This document shows positions 75 through 30,469 of a stretch of 32,928 nucleotides of DNA, in pieces. Source of the stretch: a virus; UHGV virus genome UHGV-0143082. One strand, written 5' to 3'. Below the pieces are notes generated by a model. It was not told the DNA's origin. It made no database searches and saw nothing but the letters and a program-made list of their open reading frames with translations. Within the stretch, counting starts at the first letter, position 1, and the number at the start of each line of letters is the position of its first letter. The translations under genes were made by a program, and so were the position numbers.

Positions 75-3023
75 TTAGTGCTTCCCTTCTATTAAGTCTA
101 ACCTAGCTTTTATTCTTTCTATTTCTCTGCGCTGCCATGCCGCCTCGATATAGAATAAGAGATCAGGTCTGACCCCCCATCTAGATCCTGCTGGCGTTAT
201 TTCAACGCGCTCAATGATGTCTTCCATTACCATCACTGGATTATCATCCTCATCAACAATGATGCTCCCGTCATTATCAGTCAGCGGTATTTCCCTTTGG
301 CCAGTAATGACGTCATCATATACTGCGGGATAATCGTCATAGCAAAGAAAGGCATAGCGGCATGTTGTGCTTTCTTCTTCCATGAGTCCGTGAGAAATAA
401 GAACATCACGAAGTTGCTGCGCGATTACACCATGATGTATCCTCGCCCCTTCTTCCCCCTTTATAGCGACAGCGTTCAGCCATTTATAAGCGATATACCT
501 GACGTCACCCCAGGCATCCAGCAATGCTTCGTCAGGAGAGACCGCCTCTGTCTTTAATGTTCCGTCACTGGTAACCACAGGATTGGAGCCAAGATAAACT
601 GTCGAGAACCTGTTTCCCGGACCACCAAGAGCATTTACATTATCAAGATAAGGTTTAACATCTCCGTTCTCAAAAAGATGTTCGAGTGCGTTATATACCG
701 CGCGACGTGGAGTACTGCTTCCGGAACCATGCAACGTTATCATTGCGCCATCTGCTGAAGACGTTGTTTCACCGCCGCTAACGATTAATCTCTGAGCGGT
801 AACATCATCAGACGGTACTTTCTTCGCAATAATGGCGTAATTACCCTCAAGTTTGACTTCCGCGCGAACTTGTCCTGATGTACCTGCATGGACAGTCAGT
901 GACTGGACGGCAACATCATCTGTGAAATCAACGGGTACAGGAACCGTCCTCACGCCTGACGTCGACATAAAAGTAGGAAGCGTTCTGTTAGGAGTGGCTC
1001 CGTAGACAAAATCCCTTGAAACAAATTCTTCCTGTTTAATTTTCACCCTGAAACAATACAAATCAGCCGGGTGACCATCGTGAACATAAGGATATTTTCT
1101 GTTGTTATCCCCTATGCTCCATGGGTTTAGAAAGTCTTCCCCACCGAAAATGTAGTACAGCCAGTTGTCTTTGATACAAACTGAACCAACACCAACCGCA
1201 GAGTTAACTATTCCGCCCTGATAAATCTGATCAGTAACATTAACCCACTCTACATTATCCAGACTCCACTCATTGACGTTAACTCTGGTCATAAATGTTC
1301 TTGGATAATTTCCTGCATAACGGTTATCAGGTTCTCCTCCTTCCCACTCACCAAATGCGCGCTCACTGCCAAAAATAATCAGCTCATCGCCAACTTTGGC
1401 AAAAGGAAGGTTTGAGTGATGAACATTATTTGGGAAGCGAAGAGAATTCCATGATGTACCTAAATCAGAGCTTCTGTGCAATGAACTACCGGGTTGAGTA
1501 CTTAATGTCCCCCTGGTCGTCAGATACAGAATGCCATCATAATATTTTACACATGGCTCAGATGCATTCGCCTCATATTCTGCAGGTATGCGTCTGCGAA
1601 CAAAGCTACCAGGAGAACCGAAAGCATCAGAGAAATAGAGTATCCCAAGCTCGCGTGGACCAATATCACCATTATGGTAGCCAACAGCAAAACTGTTATC
1701 GCTAATCGTCGCAAAACTGTGAATCTCAGTAACAGGAGTGCTTCCGTCAACAAAAGAAGAAATAGTTCCAAGACTGGTTTTTCTCCATGGTGACGAGTGA
1801 AATGATGTACCAAAACTCCAGTATCTACCCTCGTTATTCTGATCCACATCCTGAGTATTTTGCGTCGTAACTGTAAAAGTATTTTTATCAATAACAGTAG
1901 TCACCGTCATATTCCCGGTAACACCTGTAACACCAGAGTTTGAGAAGTTGACAAAATCACCAGCAAATAATCCGTGATCAGTAATGCGAATATAAGCGAC
2001 TTGCTGATTTGCTGCTTTCGTTATACCACCATAAACGCGAAGGCTGCGACTCATTGGACGATCCCACAACTCTGCAACCTGCAGTTTATTTCCGCGCACG
2101 GTCCGCGTCTCAATTACAGCAAAAAGGCGATTTCTGACAACCCCCATACTCATGCAGTGATAGTTAACTGTGGGATAGTTTTCATGTAAATCTGTAAGCC
2201 ATTCCGGCGTTGTCCAGGTCTTCCCGTCATCTCCTGAGCGAACCCATGCAACATGGAGGTTATTTACACCATGGCGGTCTCCAGCCATAAAAGGCGCATA
2301 GATGACATTGTCATATACAAACGTTTTATCCTGCGTCCAGGCGTTGTACCACGGTGTATCTGTAATTTTAAATAACTCTCCTTGGATAAAATCTTCAGAA
2401 GCATAAAAAAGAGGCTGACCCGGTATTCTCTCAAATAAAAAACGAGCATTTTTAAATCGACTGACATCTGGAAGAGTTGATACTTTAAAAGTAAGCCCTC
2501 GCCCATCTATCTTTTCACCACCTGTTGCAACAGAAAGTAATTCTGATAGAGCTGATGTATCATCATGAACACCATCACCAATAGCCCCCCAACCTCTTAC
2601 ATCATAACTGTCTCTCCATCTTGCTATCTGAAGTTTTGGGTATTTATTCGCTCCATCTGGGTCTTCTAATTGCTGTCGTAACTGATCAGGATCATACTTC
2701 AGCACATTCGGAAAATAGAACTGCTGCACACCGTACGCATCATAAACAGCCATAGAATGGCCCTGTACAGTAACGAATTTGGCAATCTGTCCGTTATATA
2801 CCGGATATCCAGCAGCGTTAATGATGATTGGTTGCGATACAGGAACGTGAGAGCCGTCTTCGTTCTCCACATAAACCTGAATCTGGTTTTCAGGATTTAC
2901 AGGGTCAGTGTCAATTTTACCGATATAAATTTTACCATTGGCTACGGCTTTAAAAGAACGAGCCATAGTGAAGAGTTGCGAAGGCATACTCACTACAACA
3001 TTGGCATTTATTGAATCTGTCAT
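75..3023 (-). CDS. Tailspike protein: P22 gp9-like head-binding N-terminal domain fused to endosialidase-like body with C-terminal intramolecular chaperone domain
   Basis: 982 aa; N-terminal ~115 aa closely resemble P22 tailspike ([45 protein letters not shown]); two Asp-box motifs SGDDGKTW and SSDLGTSW; C-terminal region resembles the self-cleaving chaperone of endosialidases. Confidence 0.8.
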
Positions 3024-3123: not shown

Positions 3124-4059
3124 TCAGTAGTTATGTACTGAAGGAGGTAATTCTTTATTCTTAAGTCTCATCCATGCGGAAAGATTCGTTGGTCCGTCTG
3201 GCTCATTAATATCAACATCTCGTGTGTGGTTTATTAAAACGTCTCTCGCCATTCCGATAACATACGAGAACTCATGACCGTAGTCGTAGCATCTGCCGGA
3301 ATAGTTCGATTGAATTTGTTTTAATGCCGGATACAGTTCGCGGAATAATGCCTGTGAACGGTTGGCATAATCCCATAGCCATACAAGGCTGTTTGCTTCT
3401 TTTGCAGAAAGCTCGTTGACTTTCCTCTCTTGTTTGCCGATGAACTCTCCTTCAAGCGGAACGCGAGCTGCAAGTGACAGTGCTTCGGTAAACTGCTCCT
3501 CACTAATTTCTTTGTACGAACATCCAAAATGGGATTTCAGTGACGACCACATGGTGATCATCGCCTTAGCCTGTTTTTCTTTTGGCAGAGACTGACCGCG
3601 ACTCATGACGAGTTGTTTAATGGCTTCCTGCTGTTCAGTGGTGATTTTACCCTGCAACGCCTTTTTAGCTTTGCGTGGGTTAACTACATGGCCTTTAGTC
3701 CAGTAGTCATGCAGCACGCTAAAGCATTCCTCCTGGTACTGAATCAGTTTATCACGGATGTCAGCACGAACTTTCTCAGGGTTGATGCTGAACAGCCATC
3801 CATTTAACTTCTTCAAAGGAAGGCAGAGTAGCTTACGAAGCTTCCCATCAGCGGCAACCATGTTCATATGAACACAGTTGAATTTGCTAATCTGCTTCAT
3901 GAGTTTTGTTTGCTGCGTTGACCAGCTCATTCCAAGGTTTTCAACGATTGGCTTCATCGCAACATATGCAACTCCGGCAGCCATGGCGGTGATAATTTGC
4001 TGACCGTTGAATGGTACGTAAGAGGTGTTCACTGCTTCTAAAATTGCTATACTATTCAT
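3124..4059 (-). CDS. ant: Antirepressor Ant
   Basis: N-terminus [21 protein letters not shown] resembles P22 Ant; sits between arc and tailspike as in P22 immI. ORF-track start at 4089 is a TTG; the ATG at 4059 with upstream GGAGA is preferred. Confidence 0.75.
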
Positions 4060-4130
4060 GTTGGTTTTTCTCCAAGGATTTACCGACAACCGAAGCCCTG
4101 ACTGTTACCGCAGTTGGGGCTTCAACTTTT
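4060..4130 (+). ncRNA. Candidate sar-like antisense RNA covering the ant ribosome-binding site
   Basis: Extended -10 TGcTATACT at 4045-4053 on +; predicted start about 4060; hairpin 4092-4123 (gaagccc/gggcttc) followed by U-rich tract; arrangement mirrors P22 sar. Confidence 0.3.
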
Positions 4131-24390: not shown

Positions 24391-24989
24391 GCGGCCTCAC
24401 TTCTGCTGTTTCGCAGGTCTTTGAGTTTCTGCTGATACTCCGCCTTGATGGCCCTGCACTCTTCGACAGTCCAGCGATGGCGGTTATGGTTTGATTCGAT
24501 TTCGTCTACTGCTTCCTGCCCGATGCGGCTAATCAGTTCGACGCGATACGGAACGAGATTCCCGCTTTTGTGCTGGTTGCACACCACGCATTGCTTGTGA
24601 ATATTGCGTTCATCAAATCGGAGTTGAGGCGCCGCAGCAGTTGTCCGGTAATGCCCGGCATCCCACTGAGCAGACGTGAGCGTTCCGCACGAGATACATG
24701 GTAAGTCGCGGTCTCTTTCTCTGATGAAGGCGTTTACAGCTTGTTGGGCTTGTTTAATCCAGTAACTGCGGGGCTTTAAGGCGAGTTTTCGAATCTTAAG
24801 TTTATCTTTCTGTTTCTGCTCCTCTCGTCGTCGTTTCTTCTCTGCTGCCTTTTCCGCTTTTTCGCGTTCTTTGCTTCGTCGTTCGAGTGCTATCTTGGTT
24901 CCACAAATCTCATTACACCAATATTGATTTTGATATTTTGGTATAAACCATTCATTGCAACATTTACATTTCCTTCGATAGATTCGCAT
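24387..24989 (-). CDS. ninG: NinG (Rap-like recombination endonuclease), N-terminally remodelled
   Basis: From ATG 24989 (strong SD AAAGGAG): [15 protein letters not shown]... then near-identical to lambda NinG from [18 protein letters not shown] onward. Confidence 0.8.
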
Positions 24990-25530
24990 AAGTGCTCCTT
25001 TCGTTGCCGGAAAAATCACCGTAATACTTATCTCGGGCTTCTTCAGCAACTAGTACCGCTAACTCCAGATCATCAAAGCATCCGAAGTGTTTACTCTTGC
25101 CATGGAAACCTAGCCTAACATTCCATTTTTTCTGTCGTTTGTGCCAAGTAACTCCTCTGCAACCTGATTTGCTATTCTTTCGGATCCTTATATTTCTTGA
25201 ATTTTCTATTGGCAGGCATTCTCTTAAATTTTCTGGCCTATTGTCGGTCCTAATTCCATTAACGTGGTCAATTTGACCAGCAGGCCAACGATTATGAGTT
25301 ATGTAAAAAACTAAGACGTGAGTTTTATATCTACGCCCATCTATCATGATCATTGAATAACCGTTGGAATCAAAAGTTCCAGCAACACTATTTAATGCTA
25401 TCCTTCCCTGAGTGGGAACTTTCCATCTAAATACCCCGGTAGATTTATCGAAACTTAGTAACTCAAATATCCTTTTAACAGTTAAATCTTCTCTTTTACG
25501 GTTACATCGTCTTCGCGCTGGTTTAGCCAT
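24964..25530 (-). CDS. HNH homing endonuclease with AP2-like DNA-binding domain, inserted at the 5' end of ninG
   Basis: 188 aa; HNH motif [16 protein letters not shown]; AP2-like [17 protein letters not shown]; first 29 nt identical to the lambda ninG start (MAKPARRRC) before an AT-rich insert. Confidence 0.75.
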
Positions 25531-25693
25531 TGTCTTCTTCCTCGTGCATCGAACTATTCGGATCGCTCATCAGTTCTGCGCAGCAGTGCTCACACACGTG
25601 AACTTCCAGCACATGCAACTTCTGACCGCAGTTAGCGCACGTTAAAGCCCGCTCGACGCTTTCTTGTTCGTAACTTCGATTTGGGTCAATCAC
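25523..25693 (-). CDS. ninF: NinF
   Basis: 56 aa from GTG: [56 protein letters not shown]; below the ORF-track cutoff. Confidence 0.6.
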
Positions 25694-25872
25694 CTTGTTT
25701 TCCTCGCACGTTCTCTAAGCCACCGGATATCCCACAGGTGAGCCGTGTAGTTGAAGGTTTTTACGTCAGATTCTTTTGGGATTGGCTTGCGTTTATTTCT
25801 GGAGCGTTTCGTTGGAAGGTATTTGCAGTTTTCGCAGATGATGTCGGTGATACTTCGTCGCTGTCGCCTCAT
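25690..25872 (-). CDS. ninE: NinE
   Basis: From ATG 25872: [60 protein letters not shown]. Confidence 0.7.
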
Positions 25873-26396
25873 GCCGCCCTCCTGACGCCCTGCCCGATCG
25901 CCATCAATGCCGCTTTGGATACGGTAGTAAACATCCGTCGAGGACTGATGAACGGTCGCCAAATCAGCAACATGGAACCTTTGCTGTTTCCCTTCTTCTC
26001 CAGCCCTGTCGATGGTTCGATAAAATTAATCCGTCCATCAGTGATAATGCGAACTTCGTCGACACTCTCCAGAGCCTTGCTGAACCATCCGACTGACATA
26101 TCCTCTGGCACAAGCATAACTACCGTCTGTCGCTGTTGTATGCACTGCTCAGCGGCTTTTTCCACCCACGGCCTGATATTGCTGTACGGTGGGTTATTCC
26201 AGATTGCACCGTGGCTTATCCACTCAGAATTTAGCGCGTCGTCAGCCTCAGTTAGCCAGTGAGCGCACAGAGCATTTTTGTCGCTCGCTGCCGAATCCAG
26301 CCAGAATCCAAACTCAATATCCAGTGCATCAAAAAGCCAAAGCGGCGTTTGCCAGCAGTCCTTGTCGTGTGCTGGTGTATTTGATTTGATAGTCAT
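25869..26396 (-). CDS. Phage DNA N6-adenine methyltransferase (Dam-type)
   Basis: 175 aa; catalytic motif WNNPPYSN (NPPY); sits where lambda has ninC/ninD. Confidence 0.8.
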
Positions 26397-26839
26397 GCAG
26401 CCCTACCTTTTCGTTGTGACCATTCATACTCTCGCCGGGAGTCATCACTCCACCGCACGTTGCGCTCTGAGCCGAACCAGAACATGATTTCGATAAGCTC
26501 AGTCATGCTGGCCTTTCGCATTTTGCTGGTACGCACGCCAAGCATAACAACGCCACCGTCGATACCAGGCGCACTTCGTTGCTCCAGTTTTTTGGTCTTA
26601 AGCCACAGGGCAGTGAACAGATCTTTCCAGTCCTCCGGCGCAAGTCTCTCTCCATGCCAGAGCACCTGACGCGATACGTCCTGCAATAACGCCCACATAA
26701 GGCGGTTTTGAGGATTGCTCCGCTTTGGTTCTTTAATGTGGACTTCGTGAGGTGACTTGTCGTCGATCGGAAGTGAGAGTATTGCGTCTATGGCGTTGTT
26801 TCTGATTGCTTCGTTGCGAAGCATGTATATTTGCTTCAT
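26393..26839 (-). CDS. ninB: NinB (Orf-family recombination mediator)
   Basis: Similarity to lambda NinB (...DVSRQVLWHGERL... and C-terminal WSQRKGRAA vs lambda WKARWGDRAA); start probably the Met at MKQIYMLRNE. Confidence 0.8.
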   Translation of the reverse strand: MKQIYMLRNEAIRNNAIDAILSLPIDDKSPHEVHIKEPKRSNPQNRLMWALLQDVSRQVLWHGERLAPEDWKDLFTALWLKTKKLEQRSAPGIDGGVVMLGVRTSKMRKASMTELIEIMFWFGSERNVRWSDDSRREYEWSQRKGRAA

Positions 26840-26846
26840 CGTTACC

Positions 26847-27053
26847 TCAACTAACAAAACGCCACGCCATTTTTGCTACAGCGACAGGCATAACACCGAT
26901 AATCACCCAGACAAATGCAGCGCCAAACAACGTATACCATGGGTCTTTACCGTCATTCACAAGACGAATGTAGCTATGCAGAACAATAAAAAACGTCAGA
27001 AGAATCCATCCAACGCCAACGCATTTGAGTGCGACGAGCATAAACTCAGCCAC
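26847..27053 (-). CDS. Small membrane protein, unknown function
   Basis: 68 aa, two hydrophobic helices; SD GGGGGAGAG before ATG 27053; directly downstream of the tR2-like terminator. Confidence 0.45.
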   Translation of the reverse strand: MAEFMLVALKCVGVGWILLTFFIVLHSYIRLVNDGKDPWYTLFGAAFVWVIIGVMPVAVAKMAWRFVS

Positions 27054-27070: not shown

Positions 27071-27101
27071 ATAAAAAGGCCTGCGATTACCAGCAGGCCT
27101 G
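27071..27101 (-). terminator. tR2-like rho-independent terminator between replication genes and nin region
   Basis: aggcctgc-(8 nt loop)-gcaggcct stem followed by TTTTTATTT on the minus strand. Confidence 0.6.
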
Positions 27102-27129: not shown

Positions 27130-29022
27130 TTAATACTCCGTCACGTTTTCCTGTCGCCACGCCTCGTCATATTCCGATTTCGGCATATTGGCGATGTAGC
27201 TATATGGCGATCCTGATTCAAGTTGCAGGAACTGGTGCGATTGCTCGTCAAGGAACAACGGGACACCACCTTCCCAACCTTCGCCGTTACGTTGTTTTTC
27301 AAGCATCAAAACAGATGCCGGAGATGCCAGTAGCTGTTCGTCCTTCTCTGACATCTTTTCACCACTCTGAACTCTCTGTAACGCTCTCTCGCGAGCCTTG
27401 TTACGCCAGATGATGAAAAGGTTGTCTGTCAGGTCTGTTATCGCTCCAGAGCCTTTTACGTCCATTTTCCCGGTTGGTTTTTCTTCGCTGTCTCCTTTTC
27501 TGGAGTGAGTAACGAGAATGACGTGGGAGTTTGTTTTGTTTTTGAAGTCGCAAATCGAGTCAACAAACGCCTTCTGCCCGTTATAGTCATCGTCGCCTAT
27601 GCCACATTTCATCAGGCTGTCGATGATGAATAACTGGATCCCGTATCGGCGGCGAGCGTAGTCGAATATTTCGATCAGCCTGTCGGCTTTCGCCGTTCCG
27701 GTCAGGCCAAACACCCAAAGTCTTTCGTCATAAAATTTAAATGCAGAGTCAATTTCCAGCACTGGCGGCATCTTGCAGCACGTCGCCTGACGGGTAAGGC
27801 GCTTAAGGAGAATACCAGGCTTCAGCTCAAGTGACGCGATGCACGTCTTCACACCCTGACGCATTGCCTCAAGTGCCATATGCCCGACAACCTCCGTTTT
27901 TCCGTGACCGTTCACACCATTGACCAGCGTCAACTCGGCCTCACGGAACTGGAATTTATCTGCCAGAGATTCCCACGGTGGATTAAACAGATACTGCTGC
28001 TTGCCGTAGAAAGCGTTGATAGTGTCCTGGTAAAACTCTCGCGCGCTGTAGAGTTCTTCAGGATCGAAGTAGGATGCCGTGCCGATGTACTGCCAGATTT
28101 CATCCTCGGTAACACCGTTCATCAGGCATTCGTTGATGTCTTTGTACGGCAGAGTAACAAGACGGCAACGATGTTCACCGAGTCGGCTTGCGATTTCCCT
28201 TGCGGCTTCACGACCAACATCATCAACGTCCATCGAGATGAATATTTCCTCAAACCTGTCGAGGTTGTGATACTCAAACTCAATCCACTGCTGCTTAGCG
28301 CCTTTCCCGCCACCAAACGGTACGGATAACGCCGAGATGCCGTATTGCGCATAGCTCATACAATCAATTTCGCCTTCGCAAAGTACAACCGCCCTCACGC
28401 CAGCGTCCAGAGCCTGCCATCCGAACAGACAAGGTTCGCAATCACCTTCTGCCATAATGACTTTCTTCCCGCCCGGGCGCTCAGTGCTGATTCGCTTTAC
28501 CTGCAACAACTCACCATCGCGTTTGTACGGAAGCACCAGAGCATCCAGTTCTCGCTCTCCATTCCACACCTTGCCGCTGACAACCTCGTAGCGCTTTACG
28601 ACTTCTGGCGATATGCCACGCGATTGCAGGTACTCAAGATGGGATTCTGTTCTGGTAACGTAGCGGGCAATTTTCTTGCGATCAGGTCTGGAGAATTTCT
28701 TCTCACGTCTGGCATCGAAATGGTGATCGTCATCCTTGATACCGAGAAATGCTTTCGCTTCCTGCATAGCCTGATGCAGGTTAATTCCTCGACATGCCAT
28801 CCACAAATCAAGCATGTCACCGCCGTCTCCCTCAGCGAAATCAGCCCATTTTTTCTTGCCGCTAAGGTTGACCTTAAGGCTGTTTCCCTTGTCACCGTTG
28901 ACGTTACCGGCAACCCACTCATGCCCCTCTTTCTTGCCGTTTGGCAACAGGTGCGGAGCCACCCTGTCAACCTGCGCCCAAAGCAGGTCGCTAAGTTCTG
29001 ATGGACTCAAAGGTGCCTCCAT
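27130..29022 (-). CDS. Bifunctional primase-helicase replication protein
   Basis: 630 aa; TOPRIM-like acidic segment (VLCEGEIDCMSY) in the N-terminal half, helicase-like C-terminal half. Confidence 0.75.
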   Translation of the reverse strand: MEAPLSPSELSDLLWAQVDRVAPHLLPNGKKEGHEWVAGNVNGDKGNSLKVNLSGKKKWADFAEGDGGDMLDLWMACRGINLHQAMQEAKAFLGIKDDDHHFDARREKKFSRPDRKKIARYVTRTESHLEYLQSRGISPEVVKRYEVVSGKVWNGERELDALVLPYKRDGELLQVKRISTERPGGKKVIMAEGDCEPCLFGWQALDAGVRAVVLCEGEIDCMSYAQYGISALSVPFGGGKGAKQQWIEFEYHNLDRFEEIFISMDVDDVGREAAREIASRLGEHRCRLVTLPYKDINECLMNGVTEDEIWQYIGTASYFDPEELYSAREFYQDTINAFYGKQQYLFNPPWESLADKFQFREAELTLVNGVNGHGKTEVVGHMALEAMRQGVKTCIASLELKPGILLKRLTRQATCCKMPPVLEIDSAFKFYDERLWVFGLTGTAKADRLIEIFDYARRRYGIQLFIIDSLMKCGIGDDDYNGQKAFVDSICDFKNKTNSHVILVTHSRKGDSEEKPTGKMDVKGSGAITDLTDNLFIIWRNKARERALQRVQSGEKMSEKDEQLLASPASVLMLEKQRNGEGWEGGVPLFLDEQSHQFLQLESGSPYSYIANMPKSEYDEAWRQENVTEY

Positions 29023-29501
29023 GCGTTTCCTCTGCGGATTGTGGAAATTTGCATTTCACTCACTCCGTATTTAGTGGATAGTTCGCTTAGTTTCATACCA
29101 ACAGAATTCCTGATATCAATCACATCAGTTTCAGATAGGTTTGCCCTACCATTAAAAACTCCCTTTGCGCTTTTCAGTCCGATGCTAAAAGCATGTTTTA
29201 AATTCTCTGAGCAGGTACACCATTCCAAGTTCCAAATGGCGTTATCCGATTTGTCGCCGTTGATATGATTTACTTCTGGCTTGCAATACGGATTTGGGAT
29301 AAATAATTGAGCTACAAGACGATGAACTTTTAACGTCTTCTGAATCCCATCGGAACACAAAGTGACTCTTAGATAACCCTTGTTATCCGGAGATGGATTC
29401 AAAAACCTGCCTCTTAAATGTGAATAAACACGACCGTCTTTGGTTACAGAGTATTTACCCTCATAACCAGGTATATATTCTCCAACTTCAAGGCTCATCA
29501 T
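29007..29501 (-). CDS. HNH homing endonuclease (NUMOD4-like N-terminus plus HNH)
   Basis: 164 aa; YEGKYSVTKDGRVYS motif; HNH core VNHINGDKSDNAIWNLEWCTCSENLKHA; AT-rich gene; SD GAGGGA before ATGATG. Confidence 0.75.
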   Translation of the reverse strand: MMSLEVGEYIPGYEGKYSVTKDGRVYSHLRGRFLNPSPDNKGYLRVTLCSDGIQKTLKVHRLVAQLFIPNPYCKPEVNHINGDKSDNAIWNLEWCTCSENLKHAFSIGLKSAKGVFNGRANLSETDVIDIRNSVGMKLSELSTKYGVSEMQISTIRRGNAWRHL

Positions 29502-29608: not shown

Positions 29609-30469
29609 TCACCTGTCGAAAAACACGTAGCCAGTTTTCGATACGGTGATTGCGGATGATGGTTTGGATTGTGGTTGAATAGTTTCTGGCTTCTCGTCGT
29701 TCCAGCGTTGACCGTTCAGGTAGCTCGATGGTAACAACCTGTCGAATCCGAACTGCTTACCATTCCTGCATGCGATGTCTTCTGCCAGCATCGTGGCAAA
29801 CTCGCTTGCCGTACCCCTGGTAGTTTTACGCCATTCCCTGAACTGTGTTCTGAATGCCGAAGCTGCGTTTTTCTTCCCGGCTTTCCGCATGCCTGCACAC
29901 CAGAATATTTCCTCGAATGCCTTGTCGGTTTCTTCGTGACGGTCATGTGATTTTTCACACTCCGTCCGAACACTTTCGGACATAGTGTTTTTATTATTTC
30001 TTTTTTCTTTTGTAATAGTTTCTTTTGTGTGTCCCTGTTTTGGTGACAGCGCTGTCACCGTTTTGGTGACACTTTTTGTCACCAATGCAGTGACATTATC
30101 ACCAGAGTAGTGACACCCTTCTATTTGCCATTCCTCGATGTTCTTGTTAGGCCCGATTTGCTGGCCTTCGCGAAGGATAACCTTCATCGCGATAAGCTCA
30201 TTCTTGGCCTTGTTTACCTTCTGTCTTGGCAGCCTGGTAATTTGAGCTAACTGACTATCAGAGATGCGATCCATCTTTTTACCGTAGCCGTATGTTTTAC
30301 GGCATATGGCGTGGGCAACCTTGCTCTGATTTTTCGTTAAATCTGCGCCGATAAGCTCTTCATACAGGGCATTTGCAAGACGGGTATAACCATCTTCAAC
30401 TTCTGCCACACGACGCTCCACAGGCCGTTGTGAAGGCCTTAAATGTGTTACGGTTGCAAGATTACTCAT
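29609..30469 (-). CDS. Replication initiator, lambda O-like N-terminal domain with divergent C-terminus
   Basis: N-terminal region resembles lambda O ([24 protein letters not shown]...[25 protein letters not shown]...GPNKNIEEW); iterons and AT-rich tract inside the gene. Confidence 0.75.
29981..30120. repeat. Replication origin: four iterons plus adjacent AT-rich tract inside the O-like gene
   Basis: Units GGTGACA-N5-TGTCACC at 30042-30059, 30065-30083, 30087-30103, 30107-30118 with about 22 bp periodicity; AT-rich 29985-30030 downstream in the direction of O transcription. Confidence 0.6.

Follow-up and report, generated by a model that had tools for sequence, protein, structure and literature searches.

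An orphan phage N6-adenine methyltransferase with a probable GATC target in the nin region of a P22-like phage of E. coli

Results

The window, by which we mean the whole stretch of 32,928 nucleotides analysed (UHGV virus genome UHGV-0143082), encodes on its minus strand an intact phage N6-adenine methyltransferase between ninB and ninE. This protein is an orphan "mini-Dam" that very probably methylates GATC; it would be made as a delayed-early product of the lytic cycle and would most likely top up the GATC methylation of phage DNA. The gene is real but ordinary, an already known phage methyltransferase, and the practical value of the analysis lies in correcting a claim that its specificity was unknown.

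The phage that carries the gene

Phages E212, vB_EcoP-720R6, and CUS-3 are the closest records to the window, which is the genome of a temperate E. coli podophage of the P22-like/CUS-3-like type. It has an ant/sar immunity region as well as genes for cI, cII, replication protein O, Q, and an endosialidase tailspike.

75..3023 (-): endosialidase tailspike (End_beta_propel, 1.7e-232) with a P22-type head-binding domain
3124..4089 (-): P22-type antirepressor (P22_AR_N/C)
4060..4127 (+): sar antisense RNA (Rfam RF00262, 97 bits), overlapping the antirepressor start

With its endosialidase tailspike, the phage is expected to be P22-like, of the CUS-3 type, and specific for the K1 capsule, and the antirepressor together with sar constitutes an immI-like region. 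This sar RNA was the sole hit of the Rfam scan, which gave no match in the methyltransferase region, and a repeat scan found no meaningful repeats.

An intact member of the phage N-6-adenine-methyltransferase family

The first-pass annotation had placed a phage adenine methyltransferase with an NPPY motif at 25869-26396. These coordinates are exact, the 175-aa ORF is intact on the minus strand, and the motif is read from the sequence as residues 68-71.

25869..26396 (-): phage N6-adenine methyltransferase gene; ATG at 26396-26394, TGA at 25871-25869
26184..26195 (-): NPPY codons (N68-P69-P70-Y71), catalytic motif IV of amino-methyltransferases; reverse complement AACCCACCGTAC
26283..26300 (-): codons of the LDxAA block (L33-D34-S35-A36-A37-S38), a candidate motif I-like AdoMet-binding loop

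ORF, family, motifs, gene order, gene overlaps, and the near-identity to M.EcoVT2Dam described below were all observed here. The family assignment is carried by three profiles. The ORF matches PF05869, "DNA N-6-adenine-methyltransferase (Dam)", over profile positions 1-167 of 169 (E=8.3e-65; 218 bits, cut-off 28.1), and the NCBIfam equivalog TIGR01712 (phage_N6A_met) with 264.2 bits against a cut-off of 97.05 (profile positions 1-165 of 165). Additionally, it matches PHROG 111, "DNA methyltransferase", at 8.6e-88. These matches put the ORF in the phage N-6-adenine-methyltransferase family and exclude chance by a wide margin.

N68-P69-P70-Y71-S72, T17-P18, L33-D34, D99, S101, and W104 are invariant across 39 homologues together with the Dam proteins of phages HP1 and T1. 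Within the LDxAA block, L33, D34, and A36 are invariant among the 39 homologues, and L33, D34, and A37 once HP1 and T1 Dam are added. Opposite the strongly conserved methyltransferase coding frame lies an antisense ORF of 193 aa (25681..26262, +), which we take as a spurious by-product of that frame.

Architecture and class of the enzyme

An AlphaFold model was built on the 39 homologues (pLDDT 72, pTM 0.75; residues 1-13 and 35-47 not resolved). At this moderate confidence, it forms a single alpha/beta domain, 124-136 residues of which align to the catalytic domains of larger N6-adenine methyltransferases. The enzyme is thus modelled as a minimal Rossmann-fold amino-methyltransferase without a separate target-recognition domain (TRD), and its 175 residues agree with the small single-domain type of about 170-180 aa. 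A sequence search of the PDB found no relative of the protein (best E=0.18, spurious), and none of the family's proteins has an experimental structure.

E. coli Dam and T4 Dam belong to the alpha class (PF02086). They share with the window enzyme the SAM-dependent methylation of adenine at N6, a Rossmann-type catalytic fold, and, as we infer, the GATC target. The motif order of Dam proper, however, is FxGxG, TRD, DPPY, which the window protein does not fit, and PF02086 (MethyltransfD12) has no match in the protein. In the window enzyme, the conserved LDxAA loop comes before the NPPY catalytic loop. In structure comparison, the model lies nearer to gamma-class (TaqI-like) enzymes and to PCIF1 than to E. 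coli Dam, with E. coli Dam and T4 Dam scoring lower against it (5.9 and 5.4). The window enzyme is a "Dam" by its predicted function and not by descent from the host Dam.

The Foldseek hits against the PDB are weak, and the best of them, PCIF1 (E=2.7e-3), agrees with this comparison. PCIF1 as a marginal top structural hit could point to rRNA or a transcript, rather than DNA, as the physiological substrate, and another Stx-prophage "DNA adenine methyltransferase" turned out to be a 16S rRNA methyltransferase (PMC10810198). That protein, however, is an unrelated MT-A70 enzyme, and we regard an RNA substrate as very improbable.

Several characterized enzymes were considered as identities and rejected. 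Hia5 (Hin1523) belongs to the alpha class and has 281 aa, and M.EcoGI and M.EcoGII belong to the beta class, with 349 aa and the order DPPY, TRD, FxGxG (PMC3299994, PMC5778455); neither architecture fits the 175-aa PF05869 protein. M.EcoGIX is plasmid-borne and of a different family. The prophage rRNA methyltransferase M.EcoPA8orf6770P (with PNB-2) is an MT-A70 protein with DPPW, encoded as gp5 near 3.3 kb of its phage, outside the nin region, together with a co-transcribed winged-helix partner gene, gp6 (PMC10810198). The window enzyme, by contrast, is a PF05869 protein with NPPY, and its gene is part of the nin region.

Closest relatives and purifying selection

The protein differs at one residue, the conservative I60V, from M.EcoVT2Dam of the Stx2 phage VT2-Sakai (dam, H0105, BAA94133.1; L0094 in 933W), the equation of M.EcoVT2Dam with BAA94133.1 following the GenBank annotation (174 of 175 residues identical). 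H0105 is the only methyltransferase-annotated gene in the VT2-Sakai record, and its annotators noted similarity to "HP1 Orf13 and T1 M.T1". VT2-Sakai dam has the same 528-nt length, the same position between ninB and ninE, and the same overlaps as the window gene, although it resides in an Stx2 phage and the window gene in a podophage that is P22-like and has an endosialidase as its tailspike. The protein is 100% identical to ORF175 of the Stx phage Nil2 (CAC95095.1; tblastn against AJ413274.1), which is likewise preceded by ninB and followed by ninE and is annotated just as "putative methyltransferase". All 12 nucleotide differences between the two genes are synonymous, while the Nil2 phage backbone differs from that of the window.

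Taken over the VT2-Sakai, Oslo, and Nil2 copies, 10-13 bases differ from the window gene, corresponding to 9-12 synonymous and 0-1 non-synonymous codons. This synonymous excess argues for strong purifying selection. It also bears on whether the gene is an inactive relic that is passively carried, an idea prompted by homologous prophage methyltransferases for which no methylation signal is detected in lysogens. Silence in the lysogen, however, is expected of a lytic-cycle gene, the ORF is intact and keeps every family-invariant residue, and the VT2 copy is reported to be active when cloned. A relic is therefore hardly credible.

The more distant relatives belong to the same family and retain its core. 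HP1 Dam (orf13, NP_043482.1), which has been listed among phage Dam-like enzymes, is 36% identical to the window protein, and T1 Dam (M.EcoT1Dam, YP_003925.1) is 30% identical. The invariant blocks DxWxTP, LDxxA, NPPYS, D..S..W, and R..F are common to all three, while T1 Dam, relative to the window protein, has about 45 extra residues at its N-terminus and 14 inserted residues. The genomic contexts differ, with HP1 Dam at the end of the early operon of a P2-like phage and T1 Dam in a virulent siphophage.

The gene is widespread. Of 5426 complete E. coli genomes, 1566 (roughly 29%) contain it at ≥95% nucleotide identity, and RefSeq names it there "phage N-6-adenine-methyltransferase" with NinB and NinE flanking. 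By tblastn, family members are found in 1901 of 50,697 phage records, which include Drexlerviridae and phages of Vibrio, Klebsiella, Lactococcus, and Gordonia. The enzyme is therefore already known: it is named in RefSeq, has its own equivalog model, and, as relayed by PMC6602927, cloning of a variant with one differing residue led to its assignment to GATC in 2001. A literature search on PF05869 returned nothing on lambdoid phages.

Target specificity

The GATC specificity is taken from the literature. For HP1 Dam, Piekarowicz and Bujnicki are said to have found GATC specificity in 1999. M.EcoVT2Dam of prophage VT2-Sa is stated to be "known to target" 5'-GATC-3' (PMC6602927, citing Radlinska & Bujnicki 2001, Acta Microbiol Pol 50:161). 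In Table 3 of the same paper, copies described as identical in the text are listed with 99.2% "aa similarity", a value that no integer count of differences in a 175-aa protein would yield. Moreover, M.EcoT1Dam is described as a G6mATC enzyme, and cloned M.Btr190III, which is 35% identical to T1 Dam, methylates GATC with marked off-target activity (both PMC4996451).

GATC specificity thus appears to run through the mini-Dam family. From the identity of 174 of 175 residues to M.EcoVT2Dam, together with T1 Dam and M.Btr190III, we infer that the window enzyme methylates the adenine of GATC. The earlier statement that the site specificity is unknown is therefore out of date, given a near-identical protein reported as GATC-specific and two GATC relatives. 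Strict specificity is not guaranteed, however, because M.Btr190III methylates substantially off target.

This raises a reading in which the enzyme methylates adenines with relaxed or no specificity, in many sequence contexts, and protects broadly against restriction, like the prophage enzymes Hia5 and M.EcoGII. Prophage methyltransferases are often promiscuous (PMC4659465), the modelled protein lacks a separate target-recognition domain, and the off-target activity of M.Btr190III makes relaxed specificity conceivable at high expression (PMC4996451). Against this, M.EcoVT2Dam, which differs at a single residue, is reported as GATC-specific, and the known non-specific enzymes are of other classes and not homologous in architecture to the window protein. 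Fully relaxed specificity is accordingly quite unlikely.

Position in the early operon

The methyltransferase gene lies within the early right operon, which is encoded on the minus strand.

29609..30469 (-): replication protein O
29007..29501 (-): HNH endonuclease (NUMOD4+HNH_3), between replication protein O and primase/helicase
27130..29022 (-): primase/helicase
27077..27100 (-): terminator-like hairpin just after the primase/helicase stop; 8-bp stem with 6 GC pairs, followed by a T-run; arms AGGCCTGC...GCAGGCCT
26847..27053 (-): very hydrophobic 68-aa ORF after the hairpin, without a Pfam or PADLOC match
26393..26857 (-): ninB, Orf-family recombination mediator (PF05772, 1.8e-48; phrog_72), immediately upstream of the methyltransferase gene
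25690..25872 (-): ninE, 60 aa (PF05322, 3.2e-43, profile positions 1-58 of 58), immediately downstream
24964..25530 (-): HNH endonuclease (HNH_3+AP2; phrog_99), between ninF and ninG, overlapping the long ninG ORF at its 5' end

Past the methyltransferase gene, the order is ninE, ninF, the HNH_3+AP2 endonuclease gene, ninG, ninH, a Ser/Thr phosphatase gene, and Q. The ninB TGA overlaps the methyltransferase ATG as ATGA (26396-26393), and the methyltransferase TGA overlaps the ninE ATG in the same manner (25872-25869). Such stop/start overlaps are the usual sign of translational coupling, which we predict for ninB, the methyltransferase gene, and ninE. The hairpin precedes the nin genes where lambda has tR2, and Nil2 has tR2 annotated equivalently; it is thus probably a tR2-like terminator.

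In lambda, the same interval reads ninB-ninC-ninD-ninE. The lambda ninC and ninD genes therefore share the interval between ninB and ninE with the methyltransferase gene, whereas their proteins are unrelated to the methyltransferase, NinC being PAPS-reductase-like. The first-pass annotation had the methyltransferase replacing ninC/ninD. This holds as a description of position relative to lambda but fails as a statement about alternatives, since Salmonella phage vB_SosS_Oslo (JQ806764, 832..2984) carries ninB-dam-ninC-ninD-ninE. The Oslo order instead marks the methyltransferase gene as an independent mosaic module.

The early operon is interrupted by two ORFs for HNH homing-type endonucleases (24964..25530 and 29007..29501). 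The first of these lies about 340 bp downstream of the methyltransferase gene on the same strand, so that the two might be taken for a restriction-modification pair. Yet ninE and ninF separate them, and VT2-Sakai, Nil2, and Oslo possess the methyltransferase gene while lacking the HNH_3+AP2 gene at the ninF/ninG position. HNH_3+AP2 is, moreover, a homing-endonuclease architecture (phrog_99), and the second such HNH gene interrupts the replication module. In PADLOC, the methyltransferase matches orphan-MTase models, and neither the HNH protein nor any other neighbour matches a restriction enzyme. The pairing is thus largely refuted, its residual probability being minimal, and the methyltransferase is an orphan without a partner endonuclease.

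Proposed role in the lytic cycle

Expression timing and biological role are our proposals. In the preferred reading, the single-domain 175-aa mini-Dam of the HP1/T1/VT2 type would methylate the adenine of GATC with S-adenosylmethionine, at the same site as the host Dam. The target adenine would probably be flipped into the NPPY pocket to receive the methyl group from AdoMet, and GATC would be read by short loops.

The lambda nin region is delayed-early and antitermination-dependent. As the methyltransferase gene lies downstream of the tR2-like terminator and upstream of Q, it would, by analogy to lambda, be transcribed from pR as a delayed-early gene after antitermination through the terminator. 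It would accordingly be silent in the lysogen and expressed solely during lytic growth; a lack of transcription in lysogens has indeed been found for prophage methyltransferases.

On rapidly replicating phage DNA, the host Dam might become limiting and leave GATC sites under-methylated, and the likeliest role of the phage enzyme is to top up this methylation. Packaged genomes would then be fully GATC-methylated, which may shield phage DNA from restriction of the MboI/DpnII type, from nicking by MutH, and from SeqA binding at hemimethylated sites.

Less likely, at perhaps an outside chance, the enzyme is more than a redundant copy of the host Dam, either through targets wider than GATC or through shielding of replication and recombination intermediates from MutH and SeqA. 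A 175-aa enzyme modelled without a TRD might, like M.Btr190III, have targets wider than GATC at the levels reached in the lytic cycle. Likewise, tight coupling to the recombination mediator NinB might direct methylation to replication or recombination intermediates and thereby shield them.

GATC depletion in the phage genome

GATC is rare in the window, with 74 sites, whereas Markov-2 simulations predict 171 +/- 13 and base composition predicts 126. Counts of CTAG and GGCC are low as well. The phage is therefore strongly depleted in GATC and yet encodes a predicted GATC methyltransferase. Depletion of the site shows that methylation is not the phage's only answer to GATC-directed pressure. In 1991, Deschavanne and Radman reportedly described GATC-directed selection on enterobacterial phages, and the depletion in the window fits such long-standing selection. 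Phage T1, which encodes a related Dam, has 235 GATC sites compared to 300 expected.
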